A DNA stretch of 64,000 nt from Promethearchaeota archaeon (GTDB lineage: Archaea > Asgardarchaeota > Hermodarchaeia > Hermodarchaeales > Hermodarchaeaceae). This document shows positions 4,270 through 7,936 of the stretch, piece by piece; the stretch's first letter is position 1; each line of letters starts with the position of its first letter. The translations under genes were made by a program, and so were the position numbers. The stretch is taken from contig JBHLMG010000001.1 in NCBI GenBank assembly GCA_048938385.1, positions 256,001 to 320,000 of the forward strand. Reading direction: 5' to 3'. The notes under the pieces were generated by a model, which had not been told where the DNA came from, did no database searches, and saw nothing but the letters and a program-made list of their open reading frames with translations.

Positions 4270-5754
4270 CTAATGCTGTAGTGCTGTTGTAAGGAACTCT
4301 ACCAGTTTGCTAATTTTAACAAGCTGTTCGTCACCGCTTTTCATGTCACGGATCTTAACTGCGTTCTCTTCCAATTCTCGGGGTCCAATGATGGCTGCAA
4401 GTGGAATCTGTCGTTTACTTGCATCTTCTAGATGTTTAGTCAGTGACCATGAAAATCCGTTGAAAATCGTCCGGATTTTGGATGTTCGCAGCTGAGTTGC
4501 GATATCTCGACAAGCTGTTAATTGCTTCTTGGACACCGGAGCTAAGTAGACATCAGCTTGTGGAACCGGTGGTGGAAATAACTTTTTTTCCTCTGCAATT
4601 TCTAAAATTACGGTTTCACCAAAACCAAATCCTGTCCCAGGTAGTCGCTGTCCCCCAAATATTCCCACGAGATCATCATAGCGACCACCTCCGGCAATTG
4701 CCCTGGGTATCCCTTTTCCTTGATCCCATGCCTCGAAAACGATGCCTGTGTAGTAATCGAGACCCCGAGCAATTCCTGCATCGAATTCGCAACAATCCTC
4801 AATACCCAATTCTTCTAATTGTTTGGCTAGTTGTTTCAAAGGTACAAGATTTTTCTTAGTAGACTCATCAAGAGCAGGTTTGTTCATGGCTTCAAGGAAC
4901 TCTCTTGGCGTTCCCCGAATGCCTGAGAAATCAACGAGCTGTTCAGCTGCTTGCTTAGGAACCTTCAACTTCTTCAGTCTAGTAATTAGCGCTTCACGCT
5001 GAAGTTCTGGAAGCGAGGTCTTTAACTCTTCGACTTGCCTTGAACGAGGAAGTTTGAGATCTACTTGTTGTTTTCCAGCATAGAAATGCCGAAGTTTCAA
5101 CGCCCTGTCTTCTGCCTTCTTCCGTGGCATACCATCCTTTGTGAGTTTATCGATAATGGCTTCTTGTAAGAGTTTTTCGCGCTGATCCAAGACGCGAATG
5201 ATTTCGATGTAGTTGGTCAGTCCGAGTGATTCGATATAACTTTGGATTAAGCGACGGTCATTAATTCGAATTACAAAGTCTTTCACTGTGAAACCAAGGC
5301 TCAGGATGATAGCAGCTAATACATTAATGACTTCAGCATCTGCGGCAACATCTTCTGTTCCTAAGATATCGACATTCAATTGCCAAAATTCCTTGACGCG
5401 ACCTCGTTGAAGGGTCTCATCCCGGAAAACCCGTGAAATTGAAAACCATCGAATGGGGCGTGGGTAATATTGCTGCTGCGCGGACAGCATACGTGCAAGA
5501 GAGGGTGTTGTTTCAGGACGAAGAACAAGCTGTCGTTTCTTTCGATCAGTCACTTTGAAGGTTTCATCTACTAGCGAAGGTCCTGATTTAAGCTGATACA
5601 GTTCTATTGGCTCGACAATCGGGCACTCGTATTCGATGTAACCAAATAGCTTGGGAATTTCACGAAAGGCTTGAAGTATCCGATCAACCTTTTGATAGAG
5701 TTCTGGATAATAATCTCGGAATCCACCAATCGCCAGTTCTTTCCCGCGTTTCAT
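4270..5754 (-). CDS. hisS: Histidine--tRNA ligase (start moved to ATG 5754; the longer ORF runs into the tRNA)
   Basis: GGFRDYYP, LRPETT, FRDE..QRGR..EFWQ, RGLDYYTG, GGGRYD and an anticodon-binding domain. Confidence 0.97.
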   Translation of the reverse strand: MKRGKELAIGGFRDYYPELYQKVDRILQAFREIPKLFGYIEYECPIVEPIELYQLKSGPSLVDETFKVTDRKKRQLVLRPETTPSLARMLSAQQQYYPRPIRWFSISRVFRDETLQRGRVKEFWQLNVDILGTEDVAADAEVINVLAAIILSLGFTVKDFVIRINDRRLIQSYIESLGLTNYIEIIRVLDQREKLLQEAIIDKLTKDGMPRKKAEDRALKLRHFYAGKQQVDLKLPRSRQVEELKTSLPELQREALITRLKKLKVPKQAAEQLVDFSGIRGTPREFLEAMNKPALDESTKKNLVPLKQLAKQLEELGIEDCCEFDAGIARGLDYYTGIVFEAWDQGKGIPRAIAGGGRYDDLVGIFGGQRLPGTGFGFGETVILEIAEEKKLFPPPVPQADVYLAPVSKKQLTACRDIATQLRTSKIRTIFNGFSWSLTKHLEDASKRQIPLAAIIGPRELEENAVKIRDMKSGDEQLVKISKLVEFLTTALQH

Positions 5755-5806
5755 CGTTGTCAACTCGCCAGCCAATCTCGTAAATATCCACATTGACATT
5801 GAAAAA

Positions 5807-5962
5807 TGGTGCCGGGACAGGGATTCGAACCCCGACCTAAAGCTTTCCGTATCCCAATTACAATGGGATTCCACAGGCTTCAATGCTGCCATTGCGCCTG
5901 GGCGTACATTACCAGTTTACACCATCGGGAGCCAATCAATTCTTGATCGGCCTTATCCCGGC
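5807..5962 (-). tRNA. tRNA-His(GUG) with three introns (5924-5954 at 8/9; 5892-5916 at 15/16; 5845-5870 at 37/38), CCA encoded
   Basis: Acceptor GCCGGGA/TCCCGGC, T-arm CGGGG-TTCGAAT-CCCTG, anticodon arm GAAGC-CTGTGGA-GCTTT; each intron has a 3-4-3 BHB motif; spliced product is 74 nt. Confidence 0.92.
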
Positions 5963-6144
5963 ACGGTGACCCGGCACGAGGGATTGTTGAGACGAACTCT
6001 TCCACAAAAACCTTTCCTATCTTTCCCTTCAAGTCAACCGTTGTAGGACTTTCTAGTACGGTGCTTGTTGCTGCTGAGGTGGGTGAAAACAGCGAAGCGG
6101 GTTCTGCTTCATCGATATTGAAACGATGACCCTGTCAGGCAAGG

Positions 6145-6453
6145 CTAAGCGATATCAATATTGTCGGAGGGAAATCCTAAATCACCAAGAATCCCTTTGA
6201 TGTTGTGCCGATGATCGCCCTGAAGGACGATGATTCCTTCTTTAGCGCTACCACCACATGCGCACTTCATTTTGAGCTTCGTGACAAGCTCTGAAAGCGA
6301 GATGTCTCGGCTGTTAATACCTTCAATTAGGGTGACTTCCCGCCCCCATTTCCTCCGCTCGACACTTACTTTAATTCGTTGCTCTGTCTTCGCCAATTCC
6401 TGGCAGCGACAAATATCTTTGGGCAAACTGCAAATAGGGCAAATTTCTGACAT
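6145..6453 (-). CDS. sui1: Translation initiation factor aIF1 (SUI1)
   Basis: CPICSLPKDICRC, LKMKCACGGS, IVLQGDHR. Confidence 0.95.
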   Translation of the reverse strand: MSEICPICSLPKDICRCQELAKTEQRIKVSVERRKWGREVTLIEGINSRDISLSELVTKLKMKCACGGSAKEGIIVLQGDHRHNIKGILGDLGFPSDNIDIA

Positions 6454-6848: not shown

Positions 6849-6962
6849 TTAAGGGGTTAGAGGAAGGCTCAGGAGGAGAATGCTCACGACAACACTGCCA
6901 ATTATCAGGAATAGGAGAATTATGGCAAACAACATACTTTGACTCTTTTTCTTCAATCTCAA
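6849..6962 (-). CDS. Unannotated single-TM micro-protein (M)RLKKKSQSMLFAIILLFLIIGSVVVSILLLSLPLTP (28-37 aa depending on start)
   Basis: TTG overlaps the Get3 stop; AGGTGA SD-like sequence precedes a second TTG at 6956; basic patch followed by an uncharged hydrophobic stretch; TAA at 6849-6851. Confidence 0.6.
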   Translation of the reverse strand: MRLKKKSQSMLFAIILLFLIIGSVVVSILLLSLPLTP

Positions 6963-7936
6963 TCACCTTGAGGGAGTGAACCGGTGCCAAGTAATTGGGA
7001 TAGCTGGCTCAGGGAGGAAATACCACGAATTTCGTTAGGAAACAAAGGAACTTCAGTGATGGTGAAATCATCATAGGTATCATGAATTTGGGTAAGGTAT
7101 TGCTGTTGCATGGTTTTTCGGGCTCGACAAAAACTACAATCTGGAATATCTGGAAAAAGCATGTTGACAATGATGTGACTGCTTGGGATTTCAAACTCAT
7201 AAAGAGCTTGTAAAAGTCTTTCAGTTTCAGCTACTGCCATGGCTTCAGGGATCATAACAATGACAAAGCTTGTTCGTGAAGGATTACTTAGTTCCGTTCG
7301 TGACATGGAAATATTCTTTTTGAGTTGTTCAAGCTGTTCAAGCGATTTATCTTCCTCAGAGTCTCCACGACCAAAGACGGATTTCAAGCGTCCGAAGATT
7401 TTACTAAATCTCAATCGGAGTTTGATGATTTTTCCAAAAAAACTATCCAGCATTTCTGGAAGCCCTAGTAACCTAAGTGTATGTCCTGTGGGTGCAGTGT
7501 CGAAGATCACCAAATCATACTCGCATTCCTGAATGAATTCAAGAACTTTAGAGAATGCTAAGGCCTCATCAGCTCCTGGGGCATTCATATCCATAAGATC
7601 GTCAAAGCCCATCATTCCCCCCATTGGACCCAGGTCAACTGGTTCTGATTGCCGTGTTACTTCTTTATACTCTTCAAAGGCTTTCTGTGGATTTATCTCC
7701 ATTCCATAGAGATTCCTTACTCCCTTGATAGGAATTACTTCGCCTCCGCTAAGGTTCTGATCGAAACTGTCACTCAAACTATGCGCTGGATCCGTACTGA
7801 TGACCAGCGTTTCACGTCCATGTTCTGCTGTCCATAATGCTGAGGCAGCAGCACTACTTGTTTTACCTACACCACCTTTCCCGCCAAAAAGAAGGAACCG
7901 TAATGACTCTTTGTCAAGCAATTCACTGAGGGTCAT
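6959..7936 (-). CDS. Get3/TRC40/ArsA-family ATPase (single-domain, Get3-like)
   Basis: GGKGGVGKT, STDPAHSL, DTAPTGHTLRLL, Met-rich groove segment, C-terminal CSFC. Confidence 0.92.
   Translation of the reverse strand: MTLSELLDKESLRFLLFGGKGGVGKTSSAAASALWTAEHGRETLVISTDPAHSLSDSFDQNLSGGEVIPIKGVRNLYGMEINPQKAFEEYKEVTRQSEPVDLGPMGGMMGFDDLMDMNAPGADEALAFSKVLEFIQECEYDLVIFDTAPTGHTLRLLGLPEMLDSFFGKIIKLRLRFSKIFGRLKSVFGRGDSEEDKSLEQLEQLKKNISMSRTELSNPSRTSFVIVMIPEAMAVAETERLLQALYEFEIPSSHIIVNMLFPDIPDCSFCRARKTMQQQYLTQIHDTYDDFTITEVPLFPNEIRGISSLSQLSQLLGTGSLPQGD

Follow-up and report, generated by a model that had tools for sequence, protein, structure and literature searches.

A tRNA-His gene with three introns and no encoded G-1

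We analyzed a 64,000-nt stretch of DNA (hereafter the window) from a Promethearchaeota archaeon of the Hermodarchaeia (GenBank assembly GCA_048938385.1, contig JBHLMG010000001.1, positions 256,001 to 320,000 of the forward strand), in which a tRNA-His gene lies directly upstream of hisS, the gene for histidyl-tRNA synthetase (HisRS). The guanosine at position -1 (G-1) of tRNA-His is among the most universal of tRNA identity marks, and to our knowledge the exceptions are limited to one alphaproteobacterial clade and a few protists. An earlier reading of this DNA (the original prediction) had noted a tRNA-His with A73 and no encoded G-1, and had proposed that the lineage either adds a non-templated G-1 as eukaryotes do, or has a G-1-independent HisRS that is co-transcribed with its tRNA. 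We regard it as likely that the window encodes a co-evolved, G-1-independent HisRS/tRNA-His pair, like those of Caulobacter and Trypanosoma. Families, genomes, contigs and loci are referred to below by our working numbers (f, G, C and L, respectively).

The tRNA-His(GUG) gene occupies 156 nt of the minus strand (5807..5962) and consists of four exons and three introns, as read from the sequence and from ARAGORN run on the spliced product. The exons were defined with the help of the orthologous locus in 16 related genomes, which belong to two genera; the source genome (2.48 Mb, 51 contigs) is 89.8% complete. The mature tRNA is 71 nt long plus a genome-encoded CCA. On the minus strand, G1 is at 5962 and C72 at 5811, the leader carries T(-1) at 5963 and G(-2) at 5964 and encodes no G-1, the discriminator base A73 is at 5810 and the CCA is at 5807-5809. 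The predicted A73 and genomic T at -1 are both borne out by the sequence and by the relatives, and the tRNA does end exactly 52 nt upstream of hisS on the same strand, as had been claimed; the end coordinate given for the tRNA, 5963, is that of the -1 base, with G1 itself at 5962. The encoded G-1 paired with C73 of the canonical prokaryotic identity is present neither in the window nor in its relatives, and the letters at these positions (A73, no encoded G-1) are those of the eukaryotic type.

Once spliced, the tRNA reads GCCGGGA-UG-GUGU-AAUGGCA-GCAU-U-GAAGC-CUGUGGA-GCUUU-AGGU-CGGGG-UUCGAAU-CCCUG-UCCCGGC-A-CCA, with GCCGGGA as the 5' acceptor strand and CGGGG-TTCGAAT-CCCTG-TCCCGGC-A-CCA at the 3' end of the gene. 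The GUG anticodon at positions 34-36, in the loop CUGUGGA closed by the stem GAAGC/GCUUU, identifies it as tRNA-His. ARAGORN reports a normal 74-nt tRNA-His(gtg) on the intron-removed sequence of the window and tRNA-His at 17/17 hermodarchaeal loci.

The introns were judged against the bulge-helix-bulge (BHB) motif, defined by two 3-nt bulges, a 4-bp helix and flanking helices, by which intron 3 is strict, intron 1 near-strict and intron 2 relaxed. Intron 1 (31 nt, 5924..5954, after U8) and intron 3 (26 nt, 5845..5870, at the canonical 37/38 site) were found by a BHB scan, and intron 2 (25 nt, 5892..5916, in the D-loop) was read from the alignment of relatives; all three lie on the minus strand. 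Intron 1 has the helix CGGG/CCCG, a 5' bulge AUA(A), a 3' bulge AUG and an inner hairpin of 10 bp whose letters differ in every relative with pairing kept; it departs from the strict motif by either a 4-nt bulge or a 5-bp helix. Three relatives lack intron 1 (L013, L015 and L016), and their gene reads GCCGGGATGGTGT, exactly the predicted spliced product of the window (the exact match being given for L013 and L015). Intron 3 is a strict hBHBh' motif, with helix CUGU/ACGG, bulges GGA and AAA, a 6-bp inner and a 7-bp outer helix, and is missing from three relatives (L013-L015). Intron 2 is present in all relatives and pairs as GUGU/GCGC (GCAC for GCGC in two relatives), with bulges AAA and AAU and an inner helix CUGG/CCAG that is invariant around 6-10 variable nucleotides; its outer helix is absent, which is why the strict BHB scanner did not list it. 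Its removal leaves a GUGU/GCAU D-stem and an AAUGGCA D-loop. Two other parses were rejected: GGUG/YRCC as the D-stem, with a conserved 18-nt segment as a 26/27 intron, to which no BHB motif fits, and a 29-nt frame of intron 1 with helix GGGA/UCCC, which leaves two surplus nucleotides relative to the intron-less orthologues. We chose the CUGG/CCAG plus GUGU/GCRC reading of intron 2 because a canonical D-arm results.

Standard finders miss this gene because the introns stretch it to 156 nt, which is no evidence against it. Default ARAGORN finds no tRNA in the unspliced window, and when anticodon-loop introns are allowed it finds no tRNA-His in the whole genome. The Rfam tRNA model gives the unspliced gene 17.9 bits against a cut-off of 29 and mis-assigns the D-arm, the GCGC it takes as D-stem being the intron-2 strand that pairs with the 5' strand of the true D-stem. 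A covariance model of the 3' half of tRNA-His (R1, see below) ranks the gene as its best match in the genome, at 62.7 bits, and a strict whole-genome parse returns it as the single tRNA-His gene; a relaxed parse gave uninformative noise. With anticodon-loop introns allowed, ARAGORN lists 32 tRNAs in the whole genome and none in the 64-kb window; one of its calls, a 'tRNA-Stop(tta)' with a 78-nt intron (contig C23, 67412-67570), was probably parsed wrongly. Non-canonical or multiple introns probably occur in many tRNA genes of the hermodarchaeal lineage.

The letters that define this tRNA state are conserved. A73 is identical in the window and the 16 related loci, T is at -1 in 16/17 and G at -2 in 15/17, and the triplet before G1 is 'CGT' or 'TGT' in 15/17 (the exceptions being 'TAT' in L014 and 'CAA' in the proximal copy of L012). 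DNA contigs from other metagenome samples that cover the tRNA show no difference at 5810 or 5963. Since A73 and T(-1) are conserved in relatives and unvaried in other samples, they are not sequencing errors, an option that the original prediction had left open. The mature tRNA is almost invariant across the two genera and the introns vary in letters and in presence, the pattern expected of purifying selection on the exons of a functional gene. We therefore give almost no credence to the alternative that the window holds a decaying or non-functional copy and that a working G-1:C73 tRNA-His lies in unassembled DNA. The incomplete genome would leave room for such a gene, and multi-intron tRNA genes are easily overlooked, as the short ARAGORN list indicates. 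Against this stand, besides the near-invariant exons, the synteny of the locus in all 17 hermodarchaeal genomes, the A73 found likewise in closed genomes of Ca. Heimdallarchaeum, and the lack of a second, G-1-type HisRS in any hermodarchaeal genome searched.

A73 without G-1 co-occurs with one HisRS clade

We surveyed positions 73 and -1 in Asgard tRNA-His genes using a pattern search and the covariance model R1. Accepted genes had to have a 5-bp anticodon stem beside a YTGTGR loop, a T-arm, a 7-bp acceptor stem and an allowed intron. The pattern TGTGG..GGTTCRAATCC also drew Glu, Gln and Ser tRNAs, which the cloverleaf filter removed; a looser pattern and GGAYTGTGG returned noise only.

A73 without G at -1 was found at every hermodarchaeal locus, in twelve f4 genomes and in one genome each of f13, f25 and f27, so that every parsed tRNA-His of five families, the Hermodarchaeia (f1) and four families of Heimdallarchaeia including Ca. 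Heimdallarchaeum, is of this kind. The CCA is encoded in all A73 genes except that of f13. C73 was found in ten families (f5, f6, f9, f10, f12, f15, f16, f19, f21 and f30), nine of which also have G at -1: f6 (9 genomes), f9 (5), f21 (4, one of them closed), f12, f15, f16 and f19 (2 each), and f5 and f30 (1 each). The tenth, f10 (L095, G027:C228), has C73 and T at -1, and its genome encodes Thg1 (92 bits), making it a candidate for templated post-transcriptional addition of G-1 in an Asgard archaeon. Families f4, f13, f21, f25 and f27 form one class with the Hermodarchaeia outside it; since the A73 families fall in the Heimdallarchaeia and the Hermodarchaeia, the A73/no-G-1 state is lineage-specific. 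The original prediction had made its case depend on A73 without G-1 being uncommon among archaea. It is common in most Heimdallarchaeia and in the Hermodarchaeia and unseen in the other surveyed Asgard families, such that the state is widespread in one part of the Asgard archaea only. Archaeal tRNA-His typically has C73, and A73 has been placed in early eukaryotes by a review (PMC3245924). Our literature search turned up no article that deals with Asgard Thg1 or with the identity of Asgard tRNA-His.

Many other Asgard tRNA-His genes have a distance from G1 to the anticodon stem of 53-67 nt or more, compared with ~26 nt (L065, L066, L095, L096, L138, L144-L146, L152, L155, L157, L158, L169, L170, L180, L182 and L290). 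An intron in the 5' half of tRNA-His, in the D-arm region, appears to be widespread in the phylum.

The hisS gene of the window (4270..5754, minus strand) encodes a histidine--tRNA ligase of 494 aa (P0001), as supported by profiles, orthologues and fold. Its ATG is at 5752-5754; the open reading frame (ORF) listing runs the frame into the tRNA (4270-5892), and the methionine at 5754 is the start that matches all orthologues. The protein passes the NCBIfam hisS equivalog model TIGR00442 with 321.2 bits (cut-off 286.75), has the Pfam domains tRNA-synt_His and HGTP_anticodon, and is the product of the single HisRS gene in the genome. Among solved structures its sequence is closest to the HisRS of Thermoplasma acidophilum (218 bits) and to the trypanosomal enzymes (~200 bits), and the best fold matches of its AlphaFold2 model (mean predicted local distance difference test score, pLDDT, 81.5) are the HisRS of Trypanosoma cruzi and T. 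acidophilum. The match to human HisRS (117 bits) is limited to the C-terminal part.

Three features set the enzyme apart at sites that could bear on tRNA recognition. In the Thermus thermophilus complex, the two glycines of DRGGR form the G-1 pocket, Arg115 touches the G-1 phosphate and base, and the insertion domain clamps the acceptor stem (PMC4357726). The residues D70-R-K72-K73-R74 of the window enzyme (5533..5547, minus strand) align with DRGGR, such that K72-K73 take the place of Gly72-Gly73 and the Gly-Gly pair is lost; T114 aligns with Arg115, and the conserved Arg122 is kept as Lys. The motif-2 loop, R111-D-E-T-L-Q-R-G-R-V-K-E122 (5389..5424, minus strand), carries the signature of the A73-type clade described below. 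Lastly, the insertion domain contains an extra helical segment of ~55-58 residues (residues ~205-262; 4969..5142, minus strand), and the distance from motif 2 to the RGLDYY box is 197 aa, versus 131-144 aa in other Asgard HisRS. The QEAIIDKLTKDG...KVPKQAAEQL sequence quoted in the original prediction is present in the protein. The AlphaFold2 model predicts helices at 192-206, 211-225, 229-234 and 239-262, with block pLDDT of ~76-94, and places those of the extra segment within the all-helical insertion domain. The long helical segment after motif 2 that the original prediction had pointed out is thereby confirmed, both as ~55 extra residues in the alignment and as helices in the model.

Across the Asgard archaea, HisRS of this long form occurs in exactly the five A73 families (f1, f4, f13, f25 and f27), and its members align with the window enzyme end to end at 38-46% identity. 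The enzymes of C73 families are short (418-456 aa) and align with it in two pieces. From motif 2 to RGLDYY, the aligned members of four A73 families measure 196-201 aa versus 131-144 aa in the short form, and the lengths of the two f13 enzymes, 496 and 497 aa, fit the long form. The extra segment is present in 17/17 aligned A73-type enzymes and in none of the C73 type; the f3 row of this alignment is uninformative owing to a run of unread bases. Every long-form enzyme has the motif-2 loop R-[DN]-E-T-x-Q-[RK]-G-R-[VSL]-[KR]-E, and most short-form enzymes have R-Y-[ED]-x-P-Q-x-G-R-x-R. In f1, f4 and f25, bulky residues (Lys-Lys, Asp-Glu or the like) occupy the positions of the pocket glycines. 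In the tree, which was built before the f13 enzymes were found and does not contain them, the long-form enzymes form one clade with support of 100/98, and the hermodarchaeal HisRS is nested inside the heimdallarchaeal families, adjoining f27 (87/91). The Hermodarchaeia probably acquired the long-form HisRS from Heimdallarchaeia or share it with them.

The correspondence between the A73/no-G-1 state and the HisRS clade is thus perfect for five A73 against ten C73 families, and this strict co-occurrence with one clade favors a G-1-independent HisRS. Of the two routes that had been proposed, this is the one that gains, with the enzyme's activity deduced from the pattern.

Two further families stand out by their enzymes. 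In f23 (L287, G097), the HisRS carries an additional segment, PKHRAEENPPLY, at the position of the Gly-Gly pair, and its motif-2 Gln is missing (FRYDEPAPGRFRQF); the 29 tRNA hits in genome G097 gave 26 ARAGORN tRNA calls, none of them His, and f23 may have a third kind of histidine identity system. The short f21 HisRS (L285, G138; CP070695.1) aligns with human cytosolic HisRS along its entire length (208 bits), the human enzyme being among its best solved relatives. This family of the heimdallarchaeal class has C73 and an encoded G-1; its tRNA state and its enzyme type both set it apart from its sister families.

Thg1 is not detected in A73 lineages

A tRNA-His with A73 and no encoded G-1 is the state that eukaryotes present as substrate for G-1 addition (PMC3245924), and a Thg1-type enzyme could add a non-templated G-1 opposite A73, its gene having been missed through incompleteness of the genomes or divergence. 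We searched for both domains, Thg1 (PF04446) and Thg1C (PF14413), and neither gave a hit in the source genome even at E<=10. That genome is only 89.8% complete, which leaves some room for a missed gene. Thg1 was likewise found in 0/18 hermodarchaeal relatives and in none of the genomes searched from the heimdallarchaeal A73 families (0/29 in f4, 0/11 in f13, 0/3 in f25 and 0/11 in f27), and Thg1C was found in 0/83 Heimdallarchaeia genomes, including the two closed Heimdallarchaeum chromosomes CP084166 and CP084167. The same search does detect Thg1 in 14/301 Asgard genomes across the phylum and in the Methanosarcina control. Moreover, archaeal-type Thg1 is templated, and opposite A73 it adds U, not G (PMC3245924). 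On this evidence we consider a hidden eukaryotic-type Thg1 route highly improbable, and the predicted non-templated addition of G-1 finds no support either in the Thg1 searches or in the enzyme, which has Lys-Lys at the Gly-Gly G-1 pocket. The description of the system as eukaryote-like holds for the letters of the tRNA and fails for the HisRS, given that the human match is confined to its C-terminal part.

Proposed maturation of the tRNA and its reading by HisRS

From these observations we infer the position of the mature 5' end, the G-1 independence of the HisRS and the residues with which it reads the tRNA. The tRNA-His would be transcribed with a short leader, the archaeal splicing endonuclease and ligase would take out its three introns, and cleavage by RNase P would fall at +1. 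The mature tRNA would then start at G1, pair G1 with C72, and end in A73-CCA. The HisRS of the special clade would charge this tRNA, no longer relying on an extra 5' nucleotide; it presumably reads the GUG anticodon and, via the altered motif-2 loop and the enlarged helical insertion domain, A73 and the acceptor stem.

Several points weigh against this reading. Base pairing of T(-1) and G(-2) with A73 and C74 is feasible, and RNase P might then cut atypically and leave a 5' extension in place. On the side of the enzyme, loss of Gly-Gly is not diagnostic, as the f13 and f27 HisRS retain one Gly, and one C73/G-1-type HisRS (f9, G036) lacks both glycines, which makes this a weak test; the residue at the Arg115 position already varies among Asgard HisRS of the C73 type. 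On the side of the survey, the parser was self-made and applied to top-scoring candidates, and it located no tRNA-His in f2, f3, f7, f18 (closed genome G053), f23 and several small families. Finally, all hermodarchaeal genomes are incomplete metagenome-assembled genomes (72-91% complete).

The first of these points leads to an alternative in which a 5' extension is present without Thg1, either through an early RNase P cut that leaves U-1 or through a nucleotide added by an unknown enzyme. In the former case, RNase P would cut one or two bases upstream, as U(-1):A73 and G(-2):C74 lengthen the acceptor helix, and HisRS would still read the extra 5' nucleotide or its phosphate. An acceptor helix of 9 bp is indeed available to the precursor; T(-1) and G(-2) are kept in 16/17 and 15/17 hermodarchaeal loci, and most f4 genes have T(-1); HisRS retains a basic residue at the position of Arg122, which binds the 5' phosphate; and bacterial retention of G-1 depends on such an extra base pair (PMC3245924). 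However, the -1 base varies among A73 lineages, being C in G021 and A in G126, G114, G123, G067 and the proximal copy of L012, and the bulky residues in place of the pocket glycines in f1, f4 and f25 also argue against a retained 5' nucleotide. The -2 and -1 bases double as the outer helix of the intron-1 BHB, and their conservation may in part be due to this role. We therefore consider a retained or added 5' extension unlikely, and keep the G-1-independent pair as our preferred reading.

Linkage, leader and transcription of the locus

The tRNA-His gene lies directly upstream of hisS in all 17 hermodarchaeal loci, with an eIF1/SUI1-like gene further upstream. In Heimdallarchaeum the two genes are >130 kb apart, and the tight linkage is specific to the Hermodarchaeia. 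This adjacency may go back to their having been acquired together.

Adjacent as they are, co-transcription of the two genes, as had been predicted, is doubtful. Archaeal transcription terminates at oligo-T tracts. A run of five T directly after the CCA (5802..5806, minus strand; T4 in the second genus) is a likely terminator signal, and an ATATTTA box ~30 nt before the hisS ATG (5781..5787, minus strand) is a possible TATA box; together they suggest that hisS may have its own promoter. Upstream of the tRNA, a conserved box, GGAAAGGTTTTTGTGG, ~46 nt before G1 (6002..6017, minus strand), is conserved in relatives and may be the tRNA promoter.

The leader contains a copy of the 5' acceptor strand, GUGCCGGGUCACC (5965..5977, minus strand), evident from the sequence and from relatives. 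This second copy, with the same CGT before it (CGTGCCGGGG or CGTGCTGGGA), is listed for the window, L002-L011, L014 and L017. A perfect leader copy is missing in seven loci, of which L013, L015 and L016 lack intron 1 and the window, L008, L012 and L035 bear it. In L014 it is the distal copy that lines up with the true 5' end of the orthologues without the intron. A short duplication may have accompanied the origin of intron 1.

A 102-aa ORF (6145-6453, minus strand) that we take to resemble SUI1/eIF1 lies immediately upstream of the putative promoter region of tRNA-His, and its C-terminal coding sequence is conserved upstream of tRNA-His in the relatives compared. A 325-aa ORF (6959-7936, minus strand) has a GKGGVGKT P-loop and presumably resembles ArsA/Get3-family ATPases.

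Comparison with known systems

The closest parallel is the alphaproteobacterial clade of Caulobacter crescentus, in which a HisRS with unique insertions charges a G-1-less A73 tRNA (PMC3064791). Both systems combine A73 and no G-1 in tRNA-His with a distinct HisRS lineage that has unique insertions and a changed motif-2 region and co-varies with the tRNA state across taxa (PMC3064791). Lateral transfer of the synthetase has been proposed for the Caulobacter clade (PMC3064791), and our tree suggests the same for the Asgard case. The window pair differs in being archaeal and in its Watson-Crick G1-C72 pair, in contrast to the G1-U72 wobble preferred by the Caulobacter enzyme (PMC4338351). It also differs in that its HisRS keeps Gln116 (Escherichia coli Gln118) and has the ~55-residue helical segment inside the insertion domain, and in that the tRNA gene has three introns.

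The second parallel is with protists. The HisRS of Trypanosoma brucei is indifferent to G-1 (PMC4338351), and T. brucei and Acanthamoeba castellanii share with the window A73, a Watson-Crick 1-72 pair and a genome without Thg1 (PMC4338351, PMC3561963). The trypanosomal enzymes are also among the closest solved relatives of the window HisRS in sequence and fold. Unlike the window enzyme, the HisRS of T. cruzi keeps Gly-Gly, has the loop E-A-I-T-R-G-R-R-R, and lacks the ~55-residue insertion.

The eukaryotic cytosolic system has A73 and no encoded G-1 in common with the window pair, which differs from it in that Thg1 was not found and in that the HisRS is not of the eukaryotic type. The GUG anticodon and normal cloverleaf are as in canonical archaeal and bacterial tRNA-His, and Asgard family f12, with G-1:C73, has exactly the same acceptor stem, GCCGGGA; the differences are T at -1 and A at 73.

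The Hermodarchaeia and the four heimdallarchaeal families thus form a block of Asgard archaea with A73, no encoded G-1, no detectable Thg1 and a HisRS clade of their own. Heimdallarchaeia are the archaeal group closest to eukaryotes. If the G-1-less A73 state were ancestral in much of the Heimdallarchaeia, the universal A73 of eukaryotes could have been inherited from such an ancestor and Thg1 recruited later to add a non-templated G-1. In a separate scenario, these archaea would mark tRNA-His by retaining a U-1:A73 pair. We think these broader scenarios quite unlikely, and we know of no organism in which a retained U-1:A73 5' mark has been described. The Asgard block also makes it possible to test directly how the eukaryotic system came about: whether A73 or Thg1 came first, or which HisRS. 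The HisRS/tRNA-His of the window is, moreover, a candidate orthogonal pair, and the Asgard block has a wider use. More broadly, it lets one study in archaea how an identity rule that is nearly universal comes to be rewritten, a process in which lateral transfer of the synthetase may have had a part.

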